Shown here piece by piece: positions 1,455 to 48,933 of a stretch of 64,000 bases of DNA. The stretch is taken from assembly GCA_002703375.1 (NCBI GenBank), contig NZTO01000049.1, positions 38,901-102,900 of the forward strand. Direction: 5' to 3'. A model generated the notes under the pieces. That model saw only the letters and a list, made by a program, of their open reading frames with translations, had not been told where the DNA came from and did not search any database. Position 1 is the stretch's first letter. The number at the start of each line of letters is the position of its first letter. A program made the position numbers and the translations under genes. Source of the DNA: Fidelibacterota bacterium. GTDB lineage: Bacteria > Fidelibacterota > Marinisomatia > SCGC-AAA003-L08 > GCA-002704045.

Positions 1455-2018
1455 TTAATCAAATCGCACTACAATTTCAACCTCTTCTTTTTTAATACTT
1501 TTCACAGCAGAAACTGATAATTCTTCTCGTTTTTTTCGTGTTTTACATGTTGTTGTATTTATAGAATTATTACGCTTTGATGTACTGTTTCTTTTATTCA
1601 TGTCAGCCTCAATCACAGCATAATTATCTTCAATATATTGAATAACATCATTTTCTAAGGCCCATTTAAAAAAATTAAGTTGCCCTATAGTTGTCTGTAT
1701 AAAAGTATTATTTTTATAGGGAATATTAATTCTTTCCCAACGACAAAATGGATCAAACCGACGTTTTGAATATGCCTTCAATTTTAATTTATAATCTGTA
1801 TAAACCTTAAATCGCATCTTTTCACTATTTTTTTCAATAATATAAATCGTAAAATTTTTTTTCGCGTAGTTTGTAGCAAACCAATCTACGATTCGCAAAG
1901 ATATTTTTGATTCACCGTTAATTATGTTTAACATTTTTTGTAAGTTATTATCTTTCTTATAAAAGGATAGTAAATTAGACATTAATAATTCATTTTGAGT
2001 ACTATACGTCTTAGACAT
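1455..2018 (-). CDS. conserved hypothetical protein (187 aa)
   Basis: Uninterrupted ORF. Segments RIVDWFATNYAKK, RFDPFCRWERI and TTIGQLNFFKWA resemble a family I recall from other large dsDNA viruses (recall only). Function unknown. Confidence 0.6.
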   Translation of the reverse strand: MSKTYSTQNELLMSNLLSFYKKDNNLQKMLNIINGESKISLRIVDWFATNYAKKNFTIYIIEKNSEKMRFKVYTDYKLKLKAYSKRRFDPFCRWERINIPYKNNTFIQTTIGQLNFFKWALENDVIQYIEDNYAVIEADMNKRNSTSKRNNSINTTTCKTRKKREELSVSAVKSIKKEEVEIVVRFD

Positions 2019-2080
2019 TTAATAATAGTAAAATTGTATTTTTAAAATACTTTTTCATAAATATATTTAATTTATTATAT

Positions 2081-4504
2081 TTATGAAAACAGGCGATTCA
2101 TATTTTTCACCTCGGGTTTATCTTTTTGTTCTGTAAAAATTTTATGAATCATACCCGAATCTCTAAATCTTACGGAATATTCCTGTTGCATTTTATTTCT
2201 ACCGATTCTTCCCAATGCCTGAAGTGTTTTTTCTTGAGTCATACTTGACAAATCTTTGGATATATATCCATGAGTGAATTGATAATTTGTACCATAAATA
2301 TAATCACTAGATGCAATAATCATAAATAATTTTTGCTGACTTGCGAGTTCTTTCATAATTTCTGTATAAGCAATACTCGTGTGCTCGCTAAAAACACCGA
2401 TTCCCATAATTAAAAGGATTTTCCAAGCCGCATCTATATCGGTAAGTTGTGCAATGCGAATTACAACATCTTCGCTAATATCAGCAGTAAATAAGTTTGA
2501 CTTATCTTTATCGGGAATCCATTTTTCAGTATGAGAATGAGTGTTTGGTATATAGGTGTCATCTATTTGAATTACCCGAATTTCTCTAAGCAACTCTTCA
2601 ATTTTAGATTGAATTGCTTTCATTTCAGGATTGACACGAGTACCAGAGTTTTTTCTTTCGGAAGTAACCTTGTTTTCTTTCATATCAAGATCTTCATAGT
2701 CCTTTTCCAATTTTTTTGTTTCATTTGTTAGTTTAGTATTATATTCAATATCCCTCATTAATATTTGTATTGTTTTTTCCGGAATGTTTGATTCCTTTAA
2801 ATAAAATGCTGCCACTTTTTTTATATTTTCCGTTAAAAATATTGTCGGACCGTGAGTTAGTGTATAGGAATCACTTGTTACCGCATGTATATTCGATTCA
2901 TAATATTTTTTACGATTTTCATTGAAATACTTATATATAGTGCTCCATTCTTCATGTTTAATATTTTTCAAAATTAGCAAATAATATTGTTTAATTTCAA
3001 ACATTGTTACCGTATTAAAATTCATGAAATAATTTTCAAGTTTAAGATTTTCTCTTTTCATGTAGTTATTTGTATTAATAAATAATATAAACCTTACAAT
3101 CTCTCCAAGGTCGAGGTACCGAAATAATGTTTTGTTTTCATTTATGTATTTGGCACAAGCCTGTAGTTCTTTATATTCTGCAAAAGATAAATGCGGTAAA
3201 TAAACGGAACAATCTTGATTGATAATTGGAATTGTCTTTTTACAATCATGGCTGATTATGCTATGAACATCGCCGCCAAATTTTATTCTGTAATCTTGAA
3301 TTGTTGAGATGATTTCATCTTCTCTAGGTAGCGTAGCAGAAGAAAGGACAATATTTGGTATAAGATTATCCTTCCAATTGTTGTGAATTATTTCATGAAA
3401 ATCGTGGGATTCATAATCCATAGTAATAGTGGGTTCGTCCCAAAAGGTAATAATTTTTTCTTTTTTATTGAATGCAAGCATATAATACATCGCATATCTA
3501 TAAGATTTTATATCGGATATAATCATTTCAACATTTTCCCCATTACTGTTATCCACTTTTCGAATTACGCCACTTTTTCGATCGCGAATACAATCCTTTG
3601 CTGCATTAAAATGCAATCTAATATCTTCCGCATCACCACAATTAAAAGCCAATGCAATTTTGCGATTTGAAGATATGGCATTTCTTGCAATAGCAAGACC
3701 AACATGCCTAGCCGCACACACAAATATTACACGATATTTTTCACACAATCCAATAGGAGTTAGGGTTTTTCCTGTTGATGTGGGAGCAATATATAATACC
3801 AATTTAGGTTTTATTTCAGGTAATTTAAATAATTGAAATATATCTTTTTGATGTTTGTATAAACAAATGTTTGCATGTTTCCATAAATAAGAATTGTGCT
3901 CAATCACGGTTGATGCATTTTCAATTAAAGTGGGTATTTGAGAAAGTATATCTAATTCCTTCGTAAAATAGTCAAGAATGAATCCTACAAATTCTTTAAA
4001 TAACTCATTAACCATCTTAATAGGATAATTATTCAAATGATGAATAGTATAGTAATAAAATATATATGTTGACATTTTTTTAGACTTGTCTGCTCTTTCC
4101 TTTTTAAAATACTTATTTATCATAATTTCAATCAGGTCCATGACAATAAATTCATAAATGTTTTTTTTCTCTCGTTCAAAGGTTTTTTCAAAATTTTCAA
4201 TTCGAATTATTTCTTTTTTTTTGGGATTTGTTTTTTTTTTAAATGTATATTTATAGTTGATATTGTTTTTTTTTAATAGTTTATCTATTTTAGGTTTAAA
4301 ATACTTTTCGAATAAAAATGAGGTCATTTCTTTTGACTCCTCTATTTTTGTATAAAGATAGAGTGAGTTTGTATTAGAATAGGATACTGAAGTTTCATGG
4401 AACCCCTCTTTGATCATATTTAGAATTTGTTTTTCATCGCTATCTACAGGAATTTCGATACCCTCCCATTCTGCGCGAGTTAGTTTGCGTTGACAAAGAT
4501 CCAT
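2081..4504 (-). CDS. superfamily-2 helicase (DEAD/SNF2-like)
   Basis: Ordered motifs: Walker A APTSTGKT, Walker B-like FWDEPT, motif III SSAT, motif VI QALGRIGR. Start set at MDLCQRK (ATG 4504) because an AAAATTGA box lies 38 nt upstream. ATGs at 4540 and 4594 remain possible. Confidence 0.8.
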   Translation of the reverse strand: MDLCQRKLTRAEWEGIEIPVDSDEKQILNMIKEGFHETSVSYSNTNSLYLYTKIEESKEMTSFLFEKYFKPKIDKLLKKNNINYKYTFKKKTNPKKKEIIRIENFEKTFEREKKNIYEFIVMDLIEIMINKYFKKERADKSKKMSTYIFYYYTIHHLNNYPIKMVNELFKEFVGFILDYFTKELDILSQIPTLIENASTVIEHNSYLWKHANICLYKHQKDIFQLFKLPEIKPKLVLYIAPTSTGKTLTPIGLCEKYRVIFVCAARHVGLAIARNAISSNRKIALAFNCGDAEDIRLHFNAAKDCIRDRKSGVIRKVDNSNGENVEMIISDIKSYRYAMYYMLAFNKKEKIITFWDEPTITMDYESHDFHEIIHNNWKDNLIPNIVLSSATLPREDEIISTIQDYRIKFGGDVHSIISHDCKKTIPIINQDCSVYLPHLSFAEYKELQACAKYINENKTLFRYLDLGEIVRFILFINTNNYMKRENLKLENYFMNFNTVTMFEIKQYYLLILKNIKHEEWSTIYKYFNENRKKYYESNIHAVTSDSYTLTHGPTIFLTENIKKVAAFYLKESNIPEKTIQILMRDIEYNTKLTNETKKLEKDYEDLDMKENKVTSERKNSGTRVNPEMKAIQSKIEELLREIRVIQIDDTYIPNTHSHTEKWIPDKDKSNLFTADISEDVVIRIAQLTDIDAAWKILLIMGIGVFSEHTSIAYTEIMKELASQQKLFMIIASSDYIYGTNYQFTHGYISKDLSSMTQEKTLQALGRIGRNKMQQEYSVRFRDSGMIHKIFTEQKDKPEVKNMNRLFS

Positions 4505-9766: not shown

Positions 9767-10186
9767 TTAAAAGTCGATTTGAGGAGACTGAATTCCCCTT
9801 GATTCTAAAAAATCACGTACATCCTTGCCAATTTTTTTAATACTGCTGAGTCTTTTTTTAACATTATTGCACCGGTCCGTATTTATAATAGATTCACATA
9901 CTTCCATTCTATTTTTTAATTCTTGGTTAAATAAAACAGCATTCTTTATTTCATCGGTAAGTAATGTAATATCTTGTAATTGTCTTTCTATGAGTGTATC
10001 ATATCTTTCTATAAAATTATTAATACAAATAATATTGGCCTCGTCTACTTTAACTTTATTCTCTAACTGTTTATTTAATTCTTTTCTAACATTCATATCC
10101 TTTTTAAGTTCTTGTATTTGTACGTCTATATCATCAGGTTTATACTTCATAAAATCCGCTAAAATATTTCCCATAGTTTGTGACAT
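9767..10186 (-). CDS. hypothetical coiled-coil protein (139 aa)
   Basis: Heptad-like charged sequence. The antisense 121-aa ORF (9825..10190) is low-complexity and less plausible. Confidence 0.5.
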   Translation of the reverse strand: MSQTMGNILADFMKYKPDDIDVQIQELKKDMNVRKELNKQLENKVKVDEANIICINNFIERYDTLIERQLQDITLLTDEIKNAVLFNQELKNRMEVCESIINTDRCNNVKKRLSSIKKIGKDVRDFLESRGIQSPQIDF

Positions 10187-10259
10187 TTAATTTTTATATA
10201 TATTTATTATTTTACAAATATAATAAATACATTTAAAGAAATAGAATTAGAATTAGATA

Positions 10260-11243
10260 ATGCGAGGATTGGTATTTATGGCAATTATTATGTCATCATA
10301 CAGTGATATTGTTGAGAAGCAAGATCTGTACAGCGATTTTATGGATTATTCAGCCAGGTACAACAGAACTTATCAAACGTATAGTCAATACAAAAATGCA
10401 TTTCATAGATTTTCTAAAAATATAGAATATATTAACAACAACAATTTTCCATTTAAATTAGATAGAAATGAGTATATGGATATGTCATTTGACTATTTTC
10501 ATTTGGTCAAGAAAGGATATGTAAAAAAGTTAAGCACTAGCAGTAGCAGCAGCAGTAGTTGTAGTAAATATAAGTATGAAAATAAGGAACTACCCGATTC
10601 TCTGGATTGGAGAGATGTAAATGCGGTAACTCCGGTTAAAAATCAGGGTCAATGTGGAAGTTGTTGGAGTTTTTCCGCAACCGGGGCGATGGAGGGTGCA
10701 TGGGCGATTAAAAACGAGGAGTTAGTGAGTTTGTCAGAGCAACTTTTAATGGATTGTTCTGTAGATTACGGAGACTATTCTTGTAATGGTGGAGAGATGG
10801 AATCGGCGTTTGAATTTGCGATTGATAATGGTATGTGTAGTGAAGAACAAGAGCCTTATCTAGCAAAAGATGAAGATTGTATGTACTGTAATCCGCAGAT
10901 ATATTTTAGTGATTGTGTTAGGGTAACTCCAAAGAATGAAATTCATTTAAAGGAGGCTGTTTCTAGGGGTCCGGTATCTGTAGCGATTCAAGCCGATACT
11001 AAAACATTTCAGTTTTATTCCGGGGGGATAATATCAGGAGATTCATGTGGTACGAATTTGGATCATGGAGTACTAATTGTAGGATACGGGGAAGAAGATG
11101 GGGAGAAATATTGGATAGTTAAAAACAGTTGGGGTGCATCGTGGGGGGAAAATGGTTATGTTAGAATTTCAAGAAGCGATGAAGAAAATACGCATGGTGT
11201 ATGTGGTATTGCGATGCAGCCATCTTATCCGGTGGCTTATTAA
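10260..11243 (+). CDS. papain-family (C1A) cysteine protease, cathepsin-L-like with propeptide
   Basis: Catalytic Cys motif QGQCGSCWSFSATGAMEGAW, His motif LDHGVLIVGYG, Asn/Trp motif WIVKNSWGASWGENGY. An I29-like propeptide lies upstream and a poly-Ser tract sits in the linker. Confidence 0.92.
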   Translation: MRGLVFMAIIMSSYSDIVEKQDLYSDFMDYSARYNRTYQTYSQYKNAFHRFSKNIEYINNNNFPFKLDRNEYMDMSFDYFHLVKKGYVKKLSTSSSSSSSCSKYKYENKELPDSLDWRDVNAVTPVKNQGQCGSCWSFSATGAMEGAWAIKNEELVSLSEQLLMDCSVDYGDYSCNGGEMESAFEFAIDNGMCSEEQEPYLAKDEDCMYCNPQIYFSDCVRVTPKNEIHLKEAVSRGPVSVAIQADTKTFQFYSGGIISGDSCGTNLDHGVLIVGYGEEDGEKYWIVKNSWGASWGENGYVRISRSDEENTHGVCGIAMQPSYPVAY

Positions 11244-11679: not shown

Positions 11680-13251
11680 TTAGTTGGAGTAAGCAAGACC
11701 ACCCATACCACTCATGATGCGAAGCACATTGTAGTTGACGGCGTAGATTCTTACCTTGGCGGTCATAGTGCCCTCAACGGTGGCGTTCGAGAGAACGAGT
11801 TGAAGAGTGGCGTTGTCAATGCGCGAGAAATTGCAGGTGCCCGAAGGTTGGTGCTCTTCAGGGCGGAGAGCGAACGAGTAGAGATTGACGCCGGTGTCGG
11901 GGGTGCGGGTGTGGTGTTGGAATGGTTGCACGAGGTCGAAGTAGGTACCTTCACGCTCAGAGAAGCGGTCTTGACCGTTAAGTTGGAGTTTAGCGGTAAC
12001 AACAGGATTTTGGCCCCAGCAGTGCATGTTGAGAGCAGTTTCGGCGAGAACGAAGGTGCCAGCGTCCGATACAAGGGAGCCTTGCGCGGCTCCACCACCG
12101 TCATGAAGACCGGAGGTGGCCCAGCCCTCTGTGGAGCCGGCAGGCGCGTCAGCACCGGCGTTGTCAAAGAGGCCAGAGCCGTGTATCATTGTATCGAGAG
12201 AGTCACTGTTACCGAAGGCGTGGAAAGCATTAGGAAGAGCATCGTAGGCGTCGGTGTAGTTGAATGGTTGGGCGCCTAGAAGTTTGAAAAGAGGAGTTCC
12301 TGCGTCGAGAGACGAGCAGTAGTCAACGTTTTGGTCGGGTTGTACAACCCAGACGAGTTCCTTACAAGGGTGGTTGAAGTTGAGCTTGATCTTGTTCGAG
12401 GAAGAACCAACCGACTCATCACCAGTGAATTGAAGTTGTTCGATGAGGTATTCATGGGGATTTTGAGCCATGCGACGTCTCTCGTCGGTGTCAAGGAAAA
12501 TGTAGTCTACGTATAGCGAAGCGGCGACAAGAGATTGCGAGTAGGCCGCGGTCGCCTTGGGGGTGCCGCTGGTCGAGGCGATGTCAGAGACAGCCCAAAG
12601 GCACTCATCAATAGGGCGGAGGTCAATGTTAATTTTTACCTCGTGGTATTGGAGAGCGATGAGGGGTAGCGCAAGACCAGGGTTTCTGCAGTACCAGAAT
12701 TGAAGGGGAACGTAAAGAGTGGTCTCAGGAAGAGCTTTGCGAGGAGCGCAGGTTTGGCGAGGCGCGTCCGAAGAGCAAGGGGTGTCAACCTCAGCAAAGG
12801 TGGGGTCGGTGATGTAGGTTAGCGAAGTGGTTTGTCCAACCATGTTGTGGTAGCCAACTTCTTGTTCCTTAGATTGAGTTAGAGTGTTCCAGATGTGCAT
12901 CCAGTCACCGTATTGACGGTCAATGCGTTGACCACCAATCTCAATCTCAACTTGCGAAACTAGCTGATGTCCAGGGAAATCAAGCCATCGAGCATAGTAG
13001 GCATGGTCTTGGCCAATTTCTGGTAGAGTTAGTTGCAGGTAAGTTCTGTAGGCAAGATCACCATTTCTTGAGATGGTGCAAGTCACCCGGCGACCGAAAT
13101 CAGCTTGGCCGTTGAAAGTTTGTTCGATTGCTTCCATAGCAAAGTTAGTGTGGCGTCTGTAGGTAACTTTCCAGAATGTAATTTGTGGATTGCTCGTTAG
13201 ATATACGTCTTGAGCTCCGTAAGCGACGAGTTGCATAAGTCCTCCTCCCAT
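11680..13251 (-). CDS. mcp: NCLDV major capsid protein
   Basis: N-terminus MGGGLMQLVAYGAQDVYLTSNPQITFWKVTYRRHTNFAMEAIEQTFNG and later blocks (LPLIALQYHEVKI, EYLIEQLQF, NFSRIDNATL) are typical of Mimiviridae/Phycodnaviridae capsid proteins. The 523 aa are uninterrupted. Confidence 0.95.
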   Translation of the reverse strand: MGGGLMQLVAYGAQDVYLTSNPQITFWKVTYRRHTNFAMEAIEQTFNGQADFGRRVTCTISRNGDLAYRTYLQLTLPEIGQDHAYYARWLDFPGHQLVSQVEIEIGGQRIDRQYGDWMHIWNTLTQSKEQEVGYHNMVGQTTSLTYITDPTFAEVDTPCSSDAPRQTCAPRKALPETTLYVPLQFWYCRNPGLALPLIALQYHEVKINIDLRPIDECLWAVSDIASTSGTPKATAAYSQSLVAASLYVDYIFLDTDERRRMAQNPHEYLIEQLQFTGDESVGSSSNKIKLNFNHPCKELVWVVQPDQNVDYCSSLDAGTPLFKLLGAQPFNYTDAYDALPNAFHAFGNSDSLDTMIHGSGLFDNAGADAPAGSTEGWATSGLHDGGGAAQGSLVSDAGTFVLAETALNMHCWGQNPVVTAKLQLNGQDRFSEREGTYFDLVQPFQHHTRTPDTGVNLYSFALRPEEHQPSGTCNFSRIDNATLQLVLSNATVEGTMTAKVRIYAVNYNVLRIMSGMGGLAYSN

Positions 13252-16285: not shown

Positions 16286-17128
16286 TTACCACCTGGATTT
16301 TTTAACATTAATTCTTGGCCCTGCTGATTTTTTTCTATTACTATTTGGATCATACATTTCATCTTCCTCATCCGAGTTGAGATCCTTAGATAGTTCCCAA
16401 AATTCCTTTGACCCTAACTTGAAATCACCATGTGGTTCCGCACGATACCAGAATATTTGGTCTCTTAATGAATTGCTCTTCGCATTATTATGAATAACAA
16501 GACACTCATAATTTTCTGTGCATTGATCCATAACCTGGCAGAAAGACTCAAATGTCGGAAACATTCCCGCATAGTTCTCATAGATTCTTTTACGATTTGC
16601 TATATATGGCTCCCTTAAAATAAACACATAATCAATATTTGTTCTTAAATTTGGAGGGATGCCAAGCGGGTATTGCATCGTGATTATCAACATAACTTTC
16701 CAATGACGACCGTTCATAAACAATAGACGCATCATTTTATCTTTTGTCCAACCCGCATCATATAAACAATCGTCCAAAATAACAAATGTCCGTCCATCTA
16801 TATTTGATTTTTTATATGTTTCAACTTCCCTTTTTATTTGCTTTATTACCTGTTTTTGCCTCTTTAAAATGTTCTCCACAATCGCGCTGTTATATTCATC
16901 GTGAATAAAAAGTTTTGGTACATGTTTTGAATAAAAGCCATTTCCCGCTTCCGTGCCCGATATAACAGTCCCTATAGGAATATCCTGCTGATAATATAAA
17001 ATATCTCTTACCAGATAAGATTTTCCAGTATCGCGACGACCTATTAATACGATAACTGGACCACTACTATCTTTATTCGCTTCAAATTTTATACTTTTCA
17101 TATCAAATTTTTTTAATTCAAGGGTCAT
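16286..17128 (-). CDS. A32-like virion DNA-packaging ATPase
   Basis: Walker A LIGRRDTGKSYLV and Walker B TFVILDDCLYD, with the size and downstream conservation typical of NCLDV A32/FtsK-HerA packaging ATPases. Start trimmed to MTLELKKF (ATG 17128). Confidence 0.85.
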   Translation of the reverse strand: MTLELKKFDMKSIKFEANKDSSGPVIVLIGRRDTGKSYLVRDILYYQQDIPIGTVISGTEAGNGFYSKHVPKLFIHDEYNSAIVENILKRQKQVIKQIKREVETYKKSNIDGRTFVILDDCLYDAGWTKDKMMRLLFMNGRHWKVMLIITMQYPLGIPPNLRTNIDYVFILREPYIANRKRIYENYAGMFPTFESFCQVMDQCTENYECLVIHNNAKSNSLRDQIFWYRAEPHGDFKLGSKEFWELSKDLNSDEEDEMYDPNSNRKKSAGPRINVKKSRW

Positions 17129-17211
17129 AATATAAAGAAAAAATATAAAATACATAATTTAAATACGCATAATTAGTTTAAAAATAGTTAAATTAATATA
17201 TTTAAAAACCA

Positions 17212-29116: not shown

Positions 29117-29872
29117 CTATATAATCTCGTCGACCAACCCAAACCCTAAACACGTTTCTGCATCTAACCATAAATCTTTCTGCAATAAGTAATTTAAATG
29201 AGCAGATTTTAATTTCGTACGATTTAAATAAATATTTCCTATGATGTTCATCAATACCCCCATATTTGTCATCTGATCCTGGAGTTCATTGTATTTTCCC
29301 GAATCCGTACCAGATAATTGATGTATTAACATTAAAGAATTTTTTGTCATGTACCTCTTCTTACCCACCACACTTATCAATGTTGCCGCACTCGCCGCAA
29401 AACCATCGATATAAGTATATACAGGTGTTTTAAGATTTTGAATTACATCTAATACATATAATGTATGATACAAACTACCTCCCTGACTTTGAATATGCAA
29501 ATGAATTGGTGGTGGTTTTATTTTATACTGTAAATGAAATATTTGCGATTTCACATCTAAGTCATTTAACCTATTTTTTAACTCATAACAACTTCTTTGG
29601 GAAACCGGACCGTAAAAATATATTTCATTATTAATATCGTGGATTATTCCTACCTCTCCACTTACCACATCTTCATTTAAAAATATCTTTTTCTGTATGT
29701 CACTCTCCTTTTTAATATACGGTTCGCGCTTTACAATATCCGCAGATTCATCCTTATTTGTATTGAACGAAGAAGTCATCCCGATAAAACTACCTAAAGC
29801 TTGCCGACGATTTATCGAAAAACTGTCGGACCCCAAAAAAAGCACTGTTAAAAGTACTTGCTTTAAATACAT
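29117..29872 (-). CDS. clpP: ClpP-family (S14) serine protease with N-terminal presequence
   Basis: Collinear with ClpP: IQSQGGSLYHTLYVLDVIQ (INSPGGS-like), catalytic Ser in DGFAASAATLI, catalytic His in LMLIHQLSG, Asp region KDLWLDAETCLGFGLVDEII. About 90 aa precede the core, starting with the hydrophobic MYLKQVLLTVLFLG. Confidence 0.8.
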   Translation of the reverse strand: MYLKQVLLTVLFLGSDSFSINRRQALGSFIGMTSSFNTNKDESADIVKREPYIKKESDIQKKIFLNEDVVSGEVGIIHDINNEIYFYGPVSQRSCYELKNRLNDLDVKSQIFHLQYKIKPPPIHLHIQSQGGSLYHTLYVLDVIQNLKTPVYTYIDGFAASAATLISVVGKKRYMTKNSLMLIHQLSGTDSGKYNELQDQMTNMGVLMNIIGNIYLNRTKLKSAHLNYLLQKDLWLDAETCLGFGLVDEII

Positions 29873-34284: not shown

Positions 34285-37200
34285 ATGTCGGAGAGTTCAA
34301 TACAAATCCAATTAAATGATATAATTCAAATAAATTCACCAGAAAATCCAGTTTTTCATAATAAAATCTTCATTGTTATCTATGCAAGTGAAAGTAAGAT
34401 CAAGATAATAGATTCTCCTGTAAATTTTTTAGAAACGAAGGAAGATTCTTTTCAAGAATTTAATTTACCAATCGAAGATGGTAATTTATTAGATCCAACC
34501 ATAGAAAGTATTGACTTATTAAGTAGAGATGATAATCCTGGATTTGCGATGCAAAATAATTTAACCCCGAACACATGGATTGATATAACTTTTAGCGAAG
34601 AAATACCATCTATCATTACTGGAGAGATTACTAATTTAGAAGAAGATATGATTGAAATAAAAATATATCCTTCCAATAAGGTTATTTACATTGATTTTAA
34701 ATATCAGGGTATACCCGATGATTTACCTATAAAAAGTATTTTAATCCGCGAAAAACCAAAAGAAACAATACTTGATACTACATCAAGGGCTGAATTGGGA
34801 GTATCGCAGCAGGAAGGTGTTAATCTGGATGAGGAAGAGGAAAAGGCCAAAGGAGAAGATGACAAGAGTGAGGAGGGTGACGAGAGTAATGAAATAGAAC
34901 CGGAAGAATCAAAAATAGTATTGGTCGAGTTGGATCAAGTAATATTAGAAGGAGATGCAATACAATTTGGTGAAGAACTTGGAGAGATTTATCAAGAAGT
35001 CACCGTAGACGAGGCAAATAAAAGATATTCAATAGACAGCCAAACAAATGATTTGATGGATGATATGATTTCCAGAATACCTACTAGAGAGAGAACACCA
35101 GAAGTTCTTAACTATTTACATTTGCAAATAAATCGTTTCATAGAACTACGTAAGGAGTTTTCCAAGTTCGATGAAAATGGAAATGCAAATATGCCAAATT
35201 ATAAAGGAGTTAATAATAAACCACTTATCACAGAACTGAAAGATTTCAAAAAGAAGATACCATGGTTAATACCAGTCGCTAAAAATAAGAGAAAGATATA
35301 TCACGGTGAAACAAATGAAACGTCTATTACCGGGGAAAAAATATACGCCCCTCTAACGGATGAAGAATATAATGAAATGGACATACAAAATAAATTAATA
35401 TCAGATGAAAATTTAAATGAAAATAATTATTTAAAACAATACCGTAATGACAAACAAAACACATTTAATTATAATGAACAACGCTATAAAACATTAGTTA
35501 AAAGGGTAACTAGTTTATACACACCATTTAATAAAACCGAAAATAATCATGATATTATATACGAAGCAGAAGTACAATCTTTGTTAAATGTTTTAATAAA
35601 CAATCAGGAAGATTACGATTCATTTGCCGTAAAAGATATGAATATTAAAAAAACTAAATTTCTTATGCAAAATTATGTTCCATCTATAGACCTAATTAGA
35701 ATGGATGCATTGAATAATACATATAAAGTAAGTATATCTAATAAGGATACATTGCAACTATTATCTTTTATGATGTTACCAAAAAATGTAATGAAATACT
35801 CAAAGGCCTTTTTACATGAATCCAATATCCTAGAAAAAATGGAATTAAATTCAAATCCATTTTATTACTATAAATTATTAAATAAACATACCGCACCAAA
35901 TACAATAGATATTAATAGTTTTGAAAATAAAAAAAATTACGATAAAGTAAAATTCTTATCTACCATAACAGAATTTACATTAGATTCATCCATACAAGAT
36001 GAAGATAAATACGATAAATTTTTGAACACTATTGTTCCAAAAATAAAAGACCTATTTTTATACACAAAAAATTTTATCGATGGATATTCCGTAAGAGCAA
36101 TTATAAAAGAAATGGAACCATTCCACGTTTATGGTGAAGACATAACATATCGACAATACGAAGAGTTTAGAACATTTTTAAAACTACAAATCATTGAATA
36201 TAAAAAAAATTTTGTGCAAAAATCCAAGGATTTCAAAAAAATACACCCTCGAAACGATAAACAAGAAGTACATCCTTTACCATTAGCCGTTAGTAACATA
36301 AAACACCCGCTTAATGATAAACTAATGGATTCATATGTATACGAAGAATTATATAATGTCACTACAAATAAAGATTCGACCGCTGAAATCATAAAAAAAT
36401 TAATGATAGATAGTTTTCAAATGGCCAGTAATTCAAATACTTATGGAAACTTGGAATTATTTGGTATAATAGATATCGAAACCGAAATTAAATCTCTCGA
36501 GAATCAATTCTTGGAAGAAAAAAAAGAAGAGGAAGCAAAGGATGATTGCGGTGTGTTCGTTCTTGGGAAAAAGTACGAAGATTATGATGAATTACTGGAA
36601 GATAATGATCGAGATATATATTTCGATAAAAGTTATGATACAACAATATACGACATAATAGATAATTACAAAGAACAACAACAAACTATGGATAAAGATC
36701 AATTTAACATATTCTTAATTGAAGAATTGAAAAAAAATATCGGTCTTTCGGCAGAAAAAGCGAGAGATGATGCCGAGGCTATGATATTAGGTAAACGCCC
36801 GGTAAAAGAAGGGAATTATGCAATGTTAATAAATAGGGGCGATTCAGAGGATGAAAACGATCAATCCTTTTTCCGCCGAGTAAATAATAAATGGGAAAGA
36901 GACGAAGCAATGAAAGGAATATATGCAGATAATCAAAAAATATTCTGTAATATGAAATCCACCTGCTTCCAAATAAATAATGTTTGTAGTTCTAATGAAA
37001 CCGCAGAAAATGAACTAAAGCAAAATGCAATTAAGTACATATTAAATGAATTTGATAAAAGACTAGAATTGGGTATTGATGAAATAACAGATAAAATTAA
37101 AAGAAACATACAAGAAAATGAAAGAATGCTAAAAGCCAAAATACAAATAGAAAAATTTCATTTGCTTAAACATAATAATTTCAAATTTATGCTCGGTGGT

Positions 37201-40200
37201 AATGTAGAAGACATACAAATAAAACAATCCCCATATGAAAAACTTAAAAACTTAATACTGGGTCATAATAATTTCTCCGAAAAACAAAACTATATTTTGA
37301 TATTCTGCAATAAATTTACAAGAGAAAACATTCATGGTGAAAACAATTACTGGTTATACTGTAAGGATTCAAATATAAAATTACTGCCTATATTTTTACA
37401 TAAATTAGCAGTGGCTTATTTTGATGGTACTTATGATTCAAAAATAGAAGAGATATGTAAAAATCAAGGAGAAATAAGTGACGATGAATCTTATTGGGTT
37501 GACCGTCATAGTGGATATTACATAAAAAATATAAGTTACAGCACAGATATGGGTTATGATGAAAGTGGATACGCAATAAAAACTAGCGATATTTTAGAGG
37601 ATGAAAAAGAAATTCTCTTAGACAGCCCAAAACAGGATATAGACCCCATAAATATCAGTATTGACAACATAATAAATGCAATATCAAGTAATACAAGAAT
37701 ATTTATAGAAGGATATCGCGATTTTATAAAAAAGCATGTTAGTGCTTTACTTCCTAAAATAATAAATGAAACCATCTATGAAAAACTAAAGGTCCTCGCA
37801 GAAAAAAAGAATAAAAAAATTCAATCCTATGAGTTATCTGTCAATAAATCACTTATGATTCTAACCTTATCATTTATACACATATCTATCCAGATTTCAA
37901 TTCCACCGGTTTTGACCAGAAATTCTTTTCCAGGATGTGTCAAATCCTTTTCCGGATATCCTTTAGATGGAGACAGCGATTACGGAGGTATAGAATATAT
38001 AGCATGCGTTGCATCTAAAATGAAAAGTTCCAGTTCCCCATGGAATGGTATAAATAAAATGAAAGAAGTTGTTATTACTAGAGAAATTAAAAATTCTATT
38101 GAGAAATACATTATTAATTTACCAACTGTAATATCAAAATTAGAAGAAAAAACAGAATACCTATCAAAACCAGAGAATCAAGAAATACCCGTAAGTGTGA
38201 ATTTTAAAAAATGGATAAATTTCCTCCCACCTCTACAATCGGTACAAATACCCCGAGTAGATAATATAAGTAATGCATTTATACAATCATTCAAAGAAAA
38301 TATGAGAAAGGGCTCAGAAAAACAACACGAACAATATTTAACCTTATACTCAAAAGCAAAAATGCTTACCATGGAAATTATCAAATTTATACAAAATATT
38401 ATCAATTCAAAATCACCCGTACTTACCAATAATTTACTAGAACCCTTTTTAGAAAATGCTTGTTGTAATGATGGATTAGTTCAAGCCTATAATTATTTTA
38501 TAAACGAAAATAAATCTATTCATGACAATAATACACAGATTCTATTCATAGAAAATATACTATACGATTATAATAATTTTTACACGGCACCAATGATGTT
38601 AGATTTAACGAACACAAAAATGTCAATAGTTAATACAAGTGAATATACGGAAGAATTGATATACAAAACATTTATACACTACGGTAATTTAAATAACGAA
38701 GACCCAATCCCTAAAGAATTGGAAATATTCTTCAGTGAAAAACCCGAAGAAATGAAGGACTATAAAAATTTAAAAGAACAAATAGAATTTTTGAAAGAAA
38801 ATGGTAAAAATTTTACGTATGAGAGTTTTATGGACCTACTTAAACTACTATCAAATAATATTCCTCCGGAATATTCTATTAAAACCACACATTATCAAAG
38901 ACTAGATGACCTTCTAAACTTTATTATAGATAATGAACAAAACATCCCCCCCCCCTTCACCAATGGCCTATTGAATTTATTGAAAAATCCGGAAAATAAA
39001 ATGACGGAAAATGACAATGAACTGCAAATGTTTAAAGAATATCTATATAAAAGTAGCACTGAATTAATGGAATCAATTCGATTGTTCCTAACTAGATATT
39101 CATCAACTACTAAAAAGAAAGTAAATGAAACCGTTGATTTTTTAATGAATTTAAATATTTGGAAACCGTTAAACGAAACGATTCCAAATAATGACCATGA
39201 TTACAGCAGAATATTTAGTTTCATGCATGATTTTGTAGATAAATTTTTTATCGTTTTCCCACAAATGATCAAAACAAATAATAAAAACACTAATATATCA
39301 ATACCAAACCATTGGAATATGACCTATTCCGGAAAGAAAAGCATAGAATCTTTGATAGAAATGTATTATTCAAAATTAAATAAGTACATGAATAATGAAA
39401 CTATCATATCACTCTTTCAATCTTTTCCAGATGAGATTGAACTCTACATAAAAATACTTGGAGAGATTCAATTCAAATTAGGAAATTTCATTGAAACTGG
39501 TTCCGATGTCATCTACGAATTTAAAACTTTTGACAAAAATCTTTGTGTATTGATTCATAAGTACGTTATTACTAGTTTAATATATGAGATGACTAATATA
39601 CCAGATGTTGAAAAATTTGAATTTAAACTAGGTAGAAAAGAGTTAGTAGAAACGACGACATCTGTTTCTTTAGAATCGGATTCGCTAAAATTAGAAGAAA
39701 TGGATTTCGAAGAAGATGTGCCAAATACAAATAAAGAGTTAATTGCAAATTATATTATAGATTCATGCTCTATATTTTCAATCACTAAAAAAAAAGTACT
39801 AAACTTTAGCCTGCAAGATATCAAAAAGAAAGTTAACGTCGAAAAAGAAAAGGAAAAACGTTACGAATTCACGGACAAATTAGCAAACATGGATAATGAA
39901 GAACGAGAATTAAATAACTTATTTAAAACTAGTAATCTGGGTGATTGGGGAAAAGGTAAGGAGAAGGGAATAACACAATATCAAAAAGATTTTTTTGATG
40001 CAGAAGTAAAAGATCGTGAGAAAAGAATAATGATTGAACGTAATTTAGCAAATAATCCAAATGTTACCGAAATGAATATAAATATTTTTGCCTTAGAATA
40101 CGAAGAAGAACAAGCCGCTGAGGAACAAATAGAACATGATGCATTTAATATGGAAGATATTCCAGATGATGGTGATGCCGGAGAAAATGACTATTTTGAA

Positions 40201-40218
40201 TATGATGGCGGAAAGTAA
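34285..40218 (+). CDS. very large hypothetical protein (1977 aa)
   Basis: Single uninterrupted 5.9-kb ORF. I saw no P-loop or polymerase motifs. It has acidic tracts near both ends and Cys-containing blocks (FPGCVKSFSGYPLDGDSDYGGIEYIACVASK, LENACCNDG). Confidence 0.7.
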   Translation: MSESSIQIQLNDIIQINSPENPVFHNKIFIVIYASESKIKIIDSPVNFLETKEDSFQEFNLPIEDGNLLDPTIESIDLLSRDDNPGFAMQNNLTPNTWIDITFSEEIPSIITGEITNLEEDMIEIKIYPSNKVIYIDFKYQGIPDDLPIKSILIREKPKETILDTTSRAELGVSQQEGVNLDEEEEKAKGEDDKSEEGDESNEIEPEESKIVLVELDQVILEGDAIQFGEELGEIYQEVTVDEANKRYSIDSQTNDLMDDMISRIPTRERTPEVLNYLHLQINRFIELRKEFSKFDENGNANMPNYKGVNNKPLITELKDFKKKIPWLIPVAKNKRKIYHGETNETSITGEKIYAPLTDEEYNEMDIQNKLISDENLNENNYLKQYRNDKQNTFNYNEQRYKTLVKRVTSLYTPFNKTENNHDIIYEAEVQSLLNVLINNQEDYDSFAVKDMNIKKTKFLMQNYVPSIDLIRMDALNNTYKVSISNKDTLQLLSFMMLPKNVMKYSKAFLHESNILEKMELNSNPFYYYKLLNKHTAPNTIDINSFENKKNYDKVKFLSTITEFTLDSSIQDEDKYDKFLNTIVPKIKDLFLYTKNFIDGYSVRAIIKEMEPFHVYGEDITYRQYEEFRTFLKLQIIEYKKNFVQKSKDFKKIHPRNDKQEVHPLPLAVSNIKHPLNDKLMDSYVYEELYNVTTNKDSTAEIIKKLMIDSFQMASNSNTYGNLELFGIIDIETEIKSLENQFLEEKKEEEAKDDCGVFVLGKKYEDYDELLEDNDRDIYFDKSYDTTIYDIIDNYKEQQQTMDKDQFNIFLIEELKKNIGLSAEKARDDAEAMILGKRPVKEGNYAMLINRGDSEDENDQSFFRRVNNKWERDEAMKGIYADNQKIFCNMKSTCFQINNVCSSNETAENELKQNAIKYILNEFDKRLELGIDEITDKIKRNIQENERMLKAKIQIEKFHLLKHNNFKFMLGGNVEDIQIKQSPYEKLKNLILGHNNFSEKQNYILIFCNKFTRENIHGENNYWLYCKDSNIKLLPIFLHKLAVAYFDGTYDSKIEEICKNQGEISDDESYWVDRHSGYYIKNISYSTDMGYDESGYAIKTSDILEDEKEILLDSPKQDIDPINISIDNIINAISSNTRIFIEGYRDFIKKHVSALLPKIINETIYEKLKVLAEKKNKKIQSYELSVNKSLMILTLSFIHISIQISIPPVLTRNSFPGCVKSFSGYPLDGDSDYGGIEYIACVASKMKSSSSPWNGINKMKEVVITREIKNSIEKYIINLPTVISKLEEKTEYLSKPENQEIPVSVNFKKWINFLPPLQSVQIPRVDNISNAFIQSFKENMRKGSEKQHEQYLTLYSKAKMLTMEIIKFIQNIINSKSPVLTNNLLEPFLENACCNDGLVQAYNYFINENKSIHDNNTQILFIENILYDYNNFYTAPMMLDLTNTKMSIVNTSEYTEELIYKTFIHYGNLNNEDPIPKELEIFFSEKPEEMKDYKNLKEQIEFLKENGKNFTYESFMDLLKLLSNNIPPEYSIKTTHYQRLDDLLNFIIDNEQNIPPPFTNGLLNLLKNPENKMTENDNELQMFKEYLYKSSTELMESIRLFLTRYSSTTKKKVNETVDFLMNLNIWKPLNETIPNNDHDYSRIFSFMHDFVDKFFIVFPQMIKTNNKNTNISIPNHWNMTYSGKKSIESLIEMYYSKLNKYMNNETIISLFQSFPDEIELYIKILGEIQFKLGNFIETGSDVIYEFKTFDKNLCVLIHKYVITSLIYEMTNIPDVEKFEFKLGRKELVETTTSVSLESDSLKLEEMDFEEDVPNTNKELIANYIIDSCSIFSITKKKVLNFSLQDIKKKVNVEKEKEKRYEFTDKLANMDNEERELNNLFKTSNLGDWGKGKEKGITQYQKDFFDAEVKDREKRIMIERNLANNPNVTEMNINIFALEYEEEQAAEEQIEHDAFNMEDIPDDGDAGENDYFEYDGGK

Positions 40219-46272: not shown

Positions 46273-46686
46273 TTAAATCTTTTCAATTATAATCCCCGCC
46301 ATTTCCATGATTTCCGGTATCAATTCATCGTTCTTATAATCTTCTATGTAGTAAATATTTTTTATTCCGGAAGCACACAATATCTTTGTGCAGTTAATGC
46401 AAGGATAATGCGTTATGTAAGCCTCTGCTTTGTCGCAACTAACACCGCGTTTGGCACAGTCTGTTATCGCATTTTGCTCGGCATGAATCGTGGCTTGTTC
46501 ATGATTGTTTCTAACAAAAGATTTATGGGGACATCCGGGAAGAAATCCATTATATCCCTGAGATATAATGCGGTTATCTTTTACAATAACACAACCCACT
46601 TTTAATCTCTCACACGGCGAACGTTTTGAAGTTACTAATACTATTTCCTTAAAATAATCTCTCCAACTTGGTCGTTTATTTTCCAT
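46273..46686 (-). CDS. dCMP (deoxycytidylate) deaminase
   Basis: N-terminal WRDYF, zinc motifs HAEQNAI and PCINCTKIL, and a size typical of ComEB/dCMP deaminases. Confidence 0.85.
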   Translation of the reverse strand: MENKRPSWRDYFKEIVLVTSKRSPCERLKVGCVIVKDNRIISQGYNGFLPGCPHKSFVRNNHEQATIHAEQNAITDCAKRGVSCDKAEAYITHYPCINCTKILCASGIKNIYYIEDYKNDELIPEIMEMAGIIIEKI

Positions 46687-47207
46687 TGTACATTAATCCT
46701 ACGTATTTTTTTAATTATTTTCTTACACTTAATTGTAATCGTATTTCTACAACAGCCGTATTCTGTTGCTATCTTATTTACCGGTATTTTATAAATATAA
46801 CGCTTCAAAATCAAATTCTTTTCAAATTCGGTTAATCCGCTTAAAAGATAATCATAGTTTTCAAAATCTTCTGTTATAATTAAATTTTCTTCTTTTAGTG
46901 GCAATGGTTTATTATACAGGGTTCTTATGTAGTCTCCCATATATTTTTTTATCCATCTACTACTATAAGTAGAAAATGCAAATCCCTTTGTTTCGTTATA
47001 TTTACGGGCCGCGTACAAAAGACCGATAGAACCCTCCTGAATCAACTCCTTTTTTTCATCGAGATTTAACCTATTTTTTATCATGTACGACCTAGCAAAG
47101 TAAGGAACCAATCGATAATTGTTTCTCGCATAACTCCTTATCATTTCCGGGGAATTATAACTTGATACAGAATATAATATACTTGATAAAATAATAAAAC
47201 GGTACAT
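46641..47207 (-). CDS. sigma-70 family RNA polymerase sigma factor (regions 2 and 4 only)
   Basis: NYRLVPYFARSY...ELIQEGSIGLLYAARKYNETKGFAFSTYSSRWIKKYM aligns residue-by-residue with RpoD region 2 (NLRLVISIAKKY...[37 protein letters not shown]). The C-terminal LTEFEKNLILKRYIYKIPVNKIATEYGCCRNTITIKCKKIIKKIRR matches the region 4 HTH layout. The first about 15 aa are hydrophobic. Confidence 0.85.
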   Translation of the reverse strand: MYRFIILSSILYSVSSYNSPEMIRSYARNNYRLVPYFARSYMIKNRLNLDEKKELIQEGSIGLLYAARKYNETKGFAFSTYSSRWIKKYMGDYIRTLYNKPLPLKEENLIITEDFENYDYLLSGLTEFEKNLILKRYIYKIPVNKIATEYGCCRNTITIKCKKIIKKIRRINVQWKINDQVGEIILRK

Positions 47208-47245
47208 AGTATGTATATAAATTATTTAACATGTATTTAAATAAT

Positions 47246-47518
47246 TTATGAACTGTATGTAAAGAATTGCTTCGGTATAAATCGATCCTTAAGTTCTTTA
47301 TTACAATTTACACAAGAATCGGGAGGGGTTCTTAAACAAAAGTCATTGTTATATCCCTGGTTAACACATGATTTATAAGAACTAAAGGGCTCTTTTTTTC
47401 TTTTTTGAATTAAAAAAATAATATACATAAAATAAAACAGCACAAAAATAATATAAAATGTGAAACTATTAGATGCTTTTTCAATAGTGGGAGTTACATC
47501 TATTTCTTGACTTTCCAT
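47246..47518 (-). CDS. small single-TM protein (90 aa)
   Basis: Central TM helix and a Cys-containing C-terminus. Confidence 0.45.
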   Translation of the reverse strand: MESQEIDVTPTIEKASNSFTFYIIFVLFYFMYIIFLIQKRKKEPFSSYKSCVNQGYNNDFCLRTPPDSCVNCNKELKDRFIPKQFFTYSS

Positions 47519-47535
47519 ATATTATATTGTACATT

Positions 47536-48933
47536 TTATTTCCACGAAAAGAGACGATTTGTTTTTTTGCGTTTTTTCTTTCTACGCTTTTTTGTATTTG
47601 CATTATCGGGGTTAATTTCCTTTTTATCCTTTTTCACATCGGGAATATACTTTAAAAACCACTCTTCATATTCTCTTGTTCCCTTCTTATCCTTTAGTTT
47701 TTCAAACATATCCGATTTTTCCTGACGCATAGATTCTAAGGTGGGTTGTTCCCCATAGCAACTAATACTAAATCTTCTTAGTAATCCTTTTTGTTTTAAT
47801 CTATTTTTTTGTTGAACCTTAAATAAATATTGAGACATACAAAGTAATCTATCTGTGTCGTAGTATGGTCTATCCGCATAAATGAATGCCAAATAAAAAC
47901 TTAACATTGTATCTATAGTAGCAATTTTTAAAATCTGCCCTTGTATATTAATTATATTGTAACTGTGGCATCCTAATGGTTCATATACAAAAGCAACTGT
48001 ATCCTTACCAACTAAAATTTCGTAGTGAGGAGCAATAATCTCTCCAACTCCTTCATGTTTTACTATTTTAGTATTCATTATACCTCTATCATTTAATCTT
48101 TCTACTACAATAGTACATACTGTTAACGGTTCTAATGATAAAACATCAAAATCTGGGGAGTTTTGCAATTTTTTTCTTAGTTTTGATGGCATATATTTGG
48201 AATAAATGGTGTTTGCAAATCCCCCAAAAAATATAACCTCTTGATTAATAAATGTATCTTTTGTAATATTATATATGTCTACTTCTTTATTACTTTCTAA
48301 AGAAACGGTGGATTCCATGGAACGCTGAAAATTAACTTCATCGCATTTTTTATTTCTTATTGGATAATTTTTATTTAATAATAATAGACGTTTAAGAACC
48401 TTTTCCCATCTACTTACATCACCTTTTGGTCTTGATAATTCTAAATACATAGCCATTCTTAGAAAATTCGGGGGCGCATATAAAATACCATTCACGCTGA
48501 TAGAATCTTGTTTCACCTTTTTAAACAAATTTGGATCTAATGAAGTTATATCCGCAACGGGGATATAATTTACATATACTTTATAAGTTCCATGATGTAC
48601 ACCACTTTTTGCTTCCACGTCTGTAAAGCCTCTTTCATTATAAATGTTCGCGAGTTCTTTTGCATGATCTAAAGCCGTCGGGGAATAAAAATCATAATCG
48701 GGTATTTCAAGTGATTTATCATAGAATTGATCGGATTGTGGCAATATATTATTAATGGCTGTTCCGCCATAACAAACTAATTTCTTTTTTCTTAAAAATT
48801 CTTCAACCACGGCTATAATCTTTTTTACAATTGGTGCATTTGCTGACTTTCTATCACTTCTTTTTTCCGCTTTATCTACAGCACTTCTTAATATTTCTAA
48901 TTCTTTATCTTCATAATGTTTATCCTTATTCAT
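47536..48933 (-). CDS. nucleotidyltransferase, probable Mimiviridae-type poly(A) polymerase
   Basis: Pol-beta-like signature CYGGTAIN ... IPDYDFYS (hGG ... DxD). The size and basic tail match proteins annotated as poly(A) polymerase catalytic subunit in related viruses (recall only). Confidence 0.55.
   Translation of the reverse strand: MNKDKHYEDKELEILRSAVDKAEKRSDRKSANAPIVKKIIAVVEEFLRKKKLVCYGGTAINNILPQSDQFYDKSLEIPDYDFYSPTALDHAKELANIYNERGFTDVEAKSGVHHGTYKVYVNYIPVADITSLDPNLFKKVKQDSISVNGILYAPPNFLRMAMYLELSRPKGDVSRWEKVLKRLLLLNKNYPIRNKKCDEVNFQRSMESTVSLESNKEVDIYNITKDTFINQEVIFFGGFANTIYSKYMPSKLRKKLQNSPDFDVLSLEPLTVCTIVVERLNDRGIMNTKIVKHEGVGEIIAPHYEILVGKDTVAFVYEPLGCHSYNIINIQGQILKIATIDTMLSFYLAFIYADRPYYDTDRLLCMSQYLFKVQQKNRLKQKGLLRRFSISCYGEQPTLESMRQEKSDMFEKLKDKKGTREYEEWFLKYIPDVKKDKKEINPDNANTKKRRKKKRKKTNRLFSWK

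Follow-up and report, generated by a model that had tools for sequence, protein, structure and literature searches.

A predicted minimal sigma factor with a putative organelle-import leader in marine giant viruses

Introduction

Giant viruses carry metabolic and photosynthesis-related genes. The question addressed here is whether such a virus might also control the semi-autonomous plastid genome of its host during infection. It is raised by a single open reading frame (ORF) of 188 codons at positions 46641..47207 of a 64,000-nucleotide stretch of DNA (contig NZTO01000049.1 of assembly GCA_002703375.1, positions 38,901 to 102,900; the whole stretch is referred to as the window). A first-pass annotation, made from the letters alone, had read this ORF as a bacterial or plastid-type sigma-70 factor encoded by a giant virus. 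To our knowledge, the RNA polymerases of the nucleocytoplasmic large DNA viruses (NCLDV) resemble those of eukaryotes and work without sigma factors. The bacterial-type core enzyme of a eukaryotic cell is the plastid-encoded polymerase (PEP), and its sigma factors are as a rule imported products of nuclear genes. In plastids of the red lineage that are surrounded by four membranes, import proceeds via the endoplasmic reticulum (ER) and makes use of a signal peptide followed by a transit peptide whose first residue is aromatic. What, then, does a sigma factor do in a giant-virus genome? We consider it fairly probable, judging from the features of the protein described below, that the viral sigma factor enters a complex plastid of the red lineage and acts there on PEP.

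Results

A minimal sigma-70-family protein

The ORF is predicted to encode a functional, virus-encoded minimal factor of the sigma-70 family, which consists of a sigma2 domain, a short linker and a sigma4 domain, preceded by a hydrophobic leader. The gene and its parts are as follows.

46641..47207, minus strand: complete sigma gene, 188 amino acids (aa) plus stop, with ATG start (ORF list, Pfam, TIGR02937, AlphaFold2, Foldseek, and the ratio of nonsynonymous to synonymous substitution rates, dN/dS)
47160..47207, minus strand: leader MYRFIILSSILYSVSS, residues 1-16, signal-peptide-like, with V at -3 and S at -1, then Y17-N-S-P
46914..47159, minus strand: sigma2 domain, regions 2.1-2.4, residues 17-98 (Pfam region 2 model, alignment to cyanobacterial SigA, AlphaFold2)
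within 46914..47159, minus strand: core-binding helix ELIQEGSIGLLYAARKY and melting motif FSTYSSRWIKKYM of the sigma2 domain
46830..46913, minus strand: linker of 28 residues, residues 99-126, in place of sigma3 and region 3.2 (low model confidence; variable and gapped in the alignment)
46689..46829, minus strand: sigma4 helix-turn-helix (HTH), regions 4.1/4.2, residues 127-173, ending in ...KKIRRINV (TIGR02937, AlphaFold2)
46641..46688, minus strand: residues 174-188 plus stop, a strain-specific read-through tail (QWKINDQVGEIILRK) due to a change of TAA to CAA (comparison with the sister virus contig L008)

The Pfam model Sigma70_r2 (PF04542) matches residues 28-96 (E=2e-11, 44 bits; gathering score 24), and the general sigma-70 family model TIGR02937 matches residues 27-170 over its whole length, including both domains, with 60.2 bits against a cut-off of 42.9. 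The specific NCBIfam models for RpoD, RpoS, RpoH, FliA and the cyanobacterial RpoD match in region 2 only. The closest sequences in the PDB are likewise region 2 of SigA, RpoS and RpoD; in the match to SigA, the viral NNYRLVPYFARSYM...ELIQEGSIGLLYAARKYNETKGFAFSTYSSRWIKKYM stands opposite SNLRLVVSIAKKYM... of the bacterial protein. An AlphaFold2 model built from an alignment of 50 sequences has a mean predicted local distance difference test score (pLDDT) of 87.8; an earlier model from 4 sequences (pLDDT 60.6) was not used. The model consists of four sigma2 helices (residues 20-29, 33-45, 49-69 and 78-98; pLDDT >95) and three sigma4 helices (127-138, 143-150 and 154 onwards; pLDDT 93-98), connected by a disordered linker (pLDDT <50 at residues 102-111). 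Domains sigma1.1 and sigma3 are absent from this model of the 188-aa protein. In a Foldseek comparison with the PDB, the top 50 matches are all members of the sigma70 family (sigma32, SigA, sigmaS, WhiG, SigH, sigma28), and matches to the Pfam region 4 model PF04545 are precomputed for several relatives of the viral protein. A sigma2 domain, a sigma4 HTH and the conserved residues of regions 2.2 and 2.3, by which the sigma-70 family is recognised, were thus all found.

The first-pass annotation had aligned the ORF almost position by position with region 2 of RpoD, had seen a region-4-like HTH at its end, and had described a protein of the size of the extracytoplasmic function (ECF) sigma factors, with a region 2 of the group 1-3 type and no room for regions 1.1 and 3. 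This description holds up. The peptide strings that it quoted are all present in the ORF, and the likeness of region 2 is borne out by the Pfam score and the SigA alignment. The HTH is spanned by TIGR02937 and modelled as three helices, with the Pfam region 4 model alone staying below its threshold, and the unusual architecture is reproduced by the AlphaFold2 model together with the scores of the specific models. Profile hidden Markov model search and fold prediction agree on the point: the Sigma70_r2 match is significant, and the predicted sigma2/sigma4 fold has only sigma factors as neighbours.

A family found on giant-virus and virus-like contigs

A search of 1.84 billion cluster representatives with a profile of the four closest sequences recovers 18 matches at E<=1e-30 and a family of about 35 full-length cluster representatives (50% identity) of 160-200 aa, consisting of sigma2 and sigma4; below the family follow ordinary group 1-3 sigma factors that match in region 2 only. 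When 27 members with 28-76% identity to the protein of the window are aligned, residues Q57, G59, G62, A66, Y81 and W85 are invariant and residues E58, K69, I86 and L125 are nearly so. We take Q57/E58/G59/G62/A66 to correspond to Q406/E407/G408/G411/A415 of E. coli sigma70, that is, to the region 2.2 helix that binds the beta-prime clamp helices, and Y81/W85 to correspond to Y430/W434 of the -10 melting motif. The most conserved residues of the family are those predicted to dock onto beta-prime and to open the -10 element. A comparison of the sigma gene of the window with two orthologs yields dN/dS values of 0.07-0.21, with synonymous sites near saturation. The gene is under purifying selection in the giant-virus genome.

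The orthologs that the first-pass annotation had proposed to look for in related giant viruses are present on many metagenome-assembled genomes (MAGs) of giant viruses. Carriers in IMG/VR are GVMAG-S-ERX555967-67, -3300012919-62, -ERX555965-56, -1016704-108 and -ERX555967-113, and further GVMAG-M-3300025830-31, GVMAG-S-ERX556101-77 and one uncultivated virus genome (UViG) of 323 kb. Where the genomic context of a member is readable, it consists of genes for RNB, SWIB, RING and IMPDH proteins and of orphan genes. No member of the family was found by pattern search and tblastn in 185,579 bacterial and archaeal species (one GTDB genome each), the best matches being partial, 28-49% identical and mostly restricted to region 2. 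Similarly, tblastn against 50,697 phage records gave no close relative; the best matches have 35-43% identity, in region 2 only. A recent origin from phages was rejected on account of these matches, and the fold matches in BFVD are generic phage sigma factors. The family is seen only on giant-virus and virus-like contigs.

As regards the origin of the family, its profile ranks cyanobacterial SigA first in the PDB (91-94 bits versus 67-77), a gap that comes mostly from a weak match in the second domain. The nearest relatives outside the family are unlabelled sigma factors resembling groups 1/2, and NCBIfam typing of the ten nearest is undiscriminating. A neighbor-joining tree groups 26 of the 27 members together with P0119, a family-like protein described below; the tree has no bootstrap support.

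The N-terminal leader

The leader of the window protein has a Kyte-Doolittle maximum of 2.79 over eight residues, and residues 2-17 are modelled by AlphaFold2 as a helix. The first residue of nearly all full-length members of the family is Met, in many cases with Lys or Arg next to it; a hydrophobic run comes after, whose Kyte-Doolittle maxima over nine residues are mostly 2-3.9. Across the family the leader is kept as a property, namely hydrophobicity, and not as a sequence. The junction [Y/L]-N-[S/T/N/A]-P, preceded by 15-22 leader residues, is seen in 35 of the 52 non-redundant members. Small residues occupy positions -3 and -1 in 32 of these 35 members, position +1 is taken by Tyr in 29 and by Leu in 6, and in 34 the net charge of the 22 residues downstream of the junction lies between +1 and +4. 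The ortholog P0002, seemingly devoid of a leader, is a case of a miscalled start codon: its ORF runs further upstream as MMKYGFVMFMYFISSTYS, followed directly by YNSP. Phage and bacterial sigma factors of the same size (a 195-aa protein on the phage contig L010, as well as P0051 and P0065) start with a hydrophilic, region-1.2-like segment and have no leader.

These properties can be held against published rules. The high-confidence plastid class of ASAFind needs F, Y, W or L at +1 (PMC12136025), and import into complex plastids of the red lineage needs an aromatic +1 residue and a transit peptide that is net positive and poor in acidic residues, with its length being less critical (PMC4329603). 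Checked by rule against these criteria, the family pattern shows a signal-peptide-like leader with small residues ahead of the junction (-3 and -1), Tyr or Leu directly after it (+1) and positive charge further downstream, which makes the leader a candidate targeting presequence. The apparent pattern of a signal peptide followed by an aromatic residue, noted in the first-pass annotation for the one protein, recurs across a divergent family.

We note two further proteins in this context. The 259-aa, family-like sigma factor P0119 is encoded at 1587..2366 (plus strand) of contig L083, a densely packed, intron-less contig of 50% GC that also encodes a GRF zinc-finger protein and DUF5754/DUF5824 proteins. 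Between a hydrophobic N-terminus and sigma2, P0119 has approximately 60 residues among which S, T, P, A and R are abundant and acidic residues scarce; this is the composition that would be expected of a full transit peptide where codon bias gives no constraint. The sister virus contig L008 encodes, at 11822..12469 (minus strand), a Rossmann-like protein of 215 aa (GASSGLGKE) with the leader MRFYSLVLLSFANLPIHA and a subsequent Tyr, another candidate for the combination of signal peptide and Tyr. It has no Pfam match and is not found at the equivalent place in the window.

A companion ClpP protease

The window encodes a second protein of bacterial or organellar type.

29117..29872, minus strand: ClpP protease, 251 aa (CLP_protease 1.1e-27, residues 107-251)

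The Ser, His and Asp motifs of this protease appear intact. Its leader MYLKQVLLTVLFLGSDS, continued after the presumed cleavage site by FSINRRQALGSFIGMTSS..., consists of a hydrophobic segment with small residues at -3 and -1 and Phe at +1, and the sequence after this site (FSINRRQALGSFIGMTSSFNTNK...) is positively charged and rich in hydroxyl residues. The design is closer to the classical pattern than that of the sigma leader. The leader, the Phe at +1 and an NRRxxLG element recur in the orthologs of five related giant-virus contigs (L017-L021), with junctions such as ...GTNS/FSINRRQALG, ...KSDS/FSLNRRSVLG and ...KSSC/FTWNRRSVLG (a slash marks the presumed cleavage site). In the more distant orthologs L022-L024, the leader is not followed by an aromatic residue at +1. 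The NRRxxLG element is reminiscent of a twin-arginine motif. The sigma gene is also found on four of those ClpP-bearing contigs or MAGs. Therefore, two proteins of bacterial or organellar type with similar leaders travel together.

The co-encoded ClpP, with a leader of the same type, suggests a wider viral toolkit for the remodelling of plastids. Extended to the lineage, the proposal would be that a widespread group of marine giant viruses possesses a 'plastid takeover kit' of at least a minimal sigma factor and a ClpP, both with leaders of the bipartite type, which reprogramme PEP transcription and proteolysis in the four-membrane plastids of algal hosts. From the sequences at hand we give this proposal an even chance.

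The giant-virus genome and the gene neighbourhood

In GenBank, a protein identical to the viral sigma factor is listed as hypothetical protein MAP67448.1 of a 'Candidatus Marinimicrobia' MAG. The contig is assigned to a giant virus because it carries the genes for a capsid protein, a poly(A) polymerase and an A32 ATPase, which are listed here together with a small gene next to the sigma gene.

11680..13251: NCLDV major capsid protein (Capsid_NCLDV 2.8e-61, Capsid_N 2.9e-57)
16286..17155: Pox_A32-like ATPase (Pox_A32 5e-6)
47536..48933: catalytic subunit of a mimivirus-type poly(A) polymerase, directly upstream of the sigma gene (Poly_A_pol_cat 2.5e-47)
47246..47518, minus strand: small single-pass membrane protein with Cys-rich C-terminus (CVNQGYNNDFCLRTPPDSCVNC), immediately upstream of the sigma gene

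An asparagine synthase gene is also present, and GC content is uniform at about 30% across the window; its GC-richest part is located at 10-14 kb (0.35-0.39 versus approximately 0.29). Identical copies of the sigma protein occur on 12 contigs from independent assemblies, the longest measuring 138 kb. Those listed, which stem from Tara Oceans and further metagenomes, share the gene order poly(A) polymerase, 90-aa membrane protein, sigma factor and dCMP deaminase. The same order surrounds an ortholog of 65-68% identity on the IMG/VR contig UViG_3300028197_001205. The 120 best relatives of the capsid protein are metagenomic sequences with at least 78% identity. The ORF indeed sits among viral genes, as stated in the first-pass annotation: NCLDV hallmark genes are present in the window and synteny is conserved on the 12 assemblies. 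Bacterial contamination, which the GenBank label brings to mind, is effectively ruled out by the hallmark genes and the conserved synteny. The 'Marinimicrobia' label is a binning error, in that a giant-virus contig was placed inside a bacterial MAG.

A further argument against contamination had been sought in the overlap between the sigma ORF and the dCMP deaminase gene (46273..46686). The overlap of 46 nt is real. In a DNA comparison, the sigma gene of the ortholog ends as ...AGA ATA AAT CTA TAA TGG, with the stop codon overlapping the deaminase ATG. In the window, this TAA has become CAA (stop lost at 46686..46688, minus strand; counterpart at 10511..10515 of L008) and the frame therefore extends 15 codons further. 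A near-identical variant of 173 aa (P0227) retains the stop and ends in RRINV, and the orthologs P0002 and P0003 end in RRINV or RRINL. Since the overlap is a polymorphism between strains, namely the loss of a stop, it is weak evidence against contamination, and the conserved synteny is the real argument.

The Cys-rich membrane protein was considered as an anti-sigma factor and rejected: it does not occur beside divergent members of the sigma family and is therefore probably not an anti-sigma factor. A close relative of the window (L008, 9520..9954) keeps this membrane protein, with an N-terminus enlarged by a PDMP-repeat. Two other genes of the window are mentioned for completeness. A papain-family cysteine protease (10260..11243, plus strand; 5.4e-75) adjoins the capsid gene and has an ordinary signal peptide with Asp at +1. 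An ORF of 1977 aa (34285..40218, plus strand) has no Pfam match at E<=0.001 and is found near the sigma region also in L001 and L002.

Upstream expression signals

The sigma gene is preceded by a short spacer.

47208..47245, minus strand: AT-rich intergenic spacer of 38 nt, a candidate viral promoter, with TTTAAATAC at 47233..47239

The motif TTTAAATAC is located 32 nt from the ATG of the sigma gene, and no Shine-Dalgarno sequence was found in the 38-nt spacer. TAAATAC is present in 7 of 69 upstream regions of the window, compared to 1.3 expected. The genes concerned include those for the sigma factor, ClpP and the papain-like protease, and in all seven cases the motif takes the form T[TA]TAAATAC, 12-52 nt upstream. 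AAAATTG is also enriched upstream of window genes (7 versus 1.5 expected); the two motifs may represent promoter classes. Divergent sigma genes on contigs L013 and L015 have AAAATTGA approximately 40-45 nt upstream, which we take to be the early-promoter motif of mimivirids. Taken together, the upstream motifs fit transcription by the viral machinery and would be weak evidence for it.

Discussion

How the viral sigma factor might act

The first-pass annotation had suggested that the virus may reprogramme transcription in the host plastid or, less likely, in a bacterial associate or prey, and those of its proposed checks that were run here came out in favour of its interpretation. According to the reading that we prefer, the viral machinery would express the sigma gene and ER-bound ribosomes would translate the protein. 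The host would be an alga of the haptophyte, stramenopile or cryptophyte type, whose red-lineage plastid has four membranes. The leader would bring the protein into the lumen of the host ER, and the aromatic +1 residue, together with the positively charged, acid-poor N-terminus, would lead it on into the stroma. There, the viral sigma factor would bind PEP and displace the nuclear-encoded sigma factors of the host, in parallel to phage sigma factors acting in bacteria. The outcome could be that transcription is redirected to a subset of promoters, that it is sustained after the collapse of host nuclear expression, or that it is blocked.

Several observations weigh against this reading and are collected here. 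Hydrophobic N-termini occur in 13 of 69 ORFs of the AT-rich window. Hydrophobicity alone is therefore cheap, and it is the family-wide geometry of the cleavage site and the +1 residue that carry weight. Yet 17 of the 52 members have a hydrophobic N-terminus but a different junction, and the +1 residue is Tyr or Leu rather than the canonical Phe. Only about 10 residues lie between the junction and the first sigma2 helix, hence there is no separate transit peptide. The conserved YNSP could be partly structural in sigma2, and not a sorting motif. The second domain matches the Pfam model Sigma70_r4 (PF04545) on residues 121-169 with 16.9 bits, below the gathering score of 24.1. Promoter-specificity positions were mapped via the SigA and the 27-member alignments, using what we take to be the sigma70 numbering of W433, Q437, T440, R584, E585 and R588. 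In the window protein, W433 is replaced by R (Y, F or W in other members), Q437 by K and T440 by G, and in the S-R-N-T-(I/M) of region 4.2, R584 is kept, E585 is not and R588 is changed to T. The specificity residues are thus unlike those of primary sigma factors, and the promoters read by the viral sigma factor are therefore not predictable. As to ancestry, the neighbor-joining tree gives no supported sister group, and a plastid-type origin by descent from SIG genes would be conjecture. Finally, none of the family clusters bears the name of a cultured virus.

The altered specificity positions bring up the possibility that the sigma factor does reach the plastid and binds PEP, only as a decoy or inhibitor, such that plastid transcription is shut down and not redirected. 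Conservation within the family is highest at the core-binding residues, whereas the positions that govern promoter specificity are variable or unlike those of primary sigma factors. Furthermore, sigma3 and region 3.2 are absent, and a co-targeted ClpP would suit the dismantling of a plastid. However, Y81, W85 and the recognition helix of sigma4 (S-R-N-T in most members) are conserved, which would be needless for a pure decoy, and it is established knowledge that ECF sigma factors initiate transcription without sigma3. We regard a decoy as unlikely.

The observations on the leader bear on another explanation, namely that the N-terminus serves as an ER signal or anchors the protein in a membrane, with no relation to plastids, and that the sigma-like protein acts outside organelles, for example as a DNA-binding factor at a membrane-bound viral factory or in the virion. 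Besides the frequency of hydrophobic N-termini in this genome, the lack of a separate transit peptide and the members without the Y/L-N-S-P junction, the helical conformation of residues 2-17 in the AlphaFold2 model speaks for this explanation. Against it, the leaders resemble cleavable signal peptides in their length of 15-22 residues and their small residues at -3 and -1, anchors being 20 or more residues in length. The invariant residues of the family are contacts to a beta-prime subunit of the bacterial type, whereas NCLDV polymerases are eukaryote-like, and the ClpP leader with its Phe at +1 speaks for plastid traffic in the same virus. A role of this kind outside the plastid seems rather improbable to us.

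A bacterial-type polymerase is also found in bacteria associated with the host, such as prey in food vacuoles or endosymbionts, and the sigma factor might target these via the secretory pathway. A signal peptide would lead to the endomembrane system, and it is established knowledge that many hosts of the haptophyte type are mixotrophic. There is, on the other hand, no known route for a soluble protein into the bacterial cytoplasm, the Y/L at +1 and the ClpP leader point toward the plastid, and the broad conservation of the family argues for a constant target, all of which makes a bacterial target very improbable. That the gene is a mis-assembled or mis-binned bacterial or phage gene, or a functionless, decaying relic of horizontal transfer, is suggested by the 'Candidatus Marinimicrobia bacterium' entry for the identical protein, and is scarcely credible given the same order between NCLDV genes on 12 independent assemblies, the capsid, poly(A) polymerase and A32 genes in the window, the uniform GC content, the low dN/dS and the lack of the family in GTDB genomes.

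Import of the sigma factor into the plastid, if true, would make this the first virus of eukaryotes to control organelle gene expression directly by a sigma factor of its own. What phages do by replacing sigma factors would be extended to an organelle of eukaryotes, and it would imply that viruses have acquired bipartite targeting signals of the host type. A protein of some 170 aa with a defined leader and a defined partner enzyme would provide a handle on the manipulation of plastids in bloom-forming algae. The sigma gene could also be used as a marker, in that an uncultured giant virus carrying it would be predicted to infect an alga with a complex plastid.

Comparison with known systems

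In architecture the viral sigma factor resembles the ECF (group 4) sigma factors, which likewise consist of sigma2, linker and sigma4 within approximately 170-200 aa and lack regions 1.1 and 3; the full-length match to TIGR02937 fits this likeness. It differs from them in region 2, where DLIQEG..GL..A..K(F/Y)....G.(K)FSTY...WI follows the group 1-3 pattern and the models for RpoD, RpoS, RpoH and FliA score best. It further differs in having no conserved anti-sigma partner, in its signal-peptide-like leader and in its occurrence in a virus of eukaryotes. With the plastid SIG proteins (SIG1-6 of plants and the SIGs of algae) it would share synthesis in the cytosol, import by an N-terminal presequence and the recognition of PEP promoters, as proposed here. 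Plastid SIGs are host genes whose products comprise 400-600 aa and regions 1.2, 2, 3 and 4, whereas the viral protein lacks sigma3 and is encoded by a virus.

Phage sigma factors (of the Bacillus phage SigF/G-like, cyanophage, T4 gp55 and SPO1 gp28 types) provide the likeness in strategy: a sigma factor supplied by a virus redirects a polymerase of the bacterial type. The phage proteins act in the bacterial cytoplasm, have no targeting leader, and are at most 35-43% identical to the viral protein, in region 2 only. Short sigma factors resembling groups 1-3 occur in phages, too. For example, a contig of a tailed phage (L010, with tape measure and lysozyme genes) encodes at 9878..10465 (plus strand) a sigma2 plus sigma4 protein of 195 aa, with ...FWIKKYM... 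and 42% identity in region 2.

The sole published case of a giant algal virus with an annotated sigma gene that we found in open-access text is the prasinovirus OtV-2 (Ostreococcus tauri virus), whose 'putative RNA polymerase sigma factor' is described as horizontally acquired and host-derived (PMC5371798, PMC4468942). By description, the differences are that OtV-2 has one isolated gene and is a phycodnavirus infecting a green alga, whose plastid is primary; open-access text yielded no account of a family, a targeting signal or a function for its sigma factor. The first-pass annotation was not aware of sigma factors as a recognised class of giant-virus genes. It was right in so far as no description of the present family was found in the open-access full-text literature, but OtV-2 is an annotated precedent for a single gene. 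What appears to be new here is the combination of a sigma factor encoded by a virus of eukaryotes with a predicted leader for import into an organelle.

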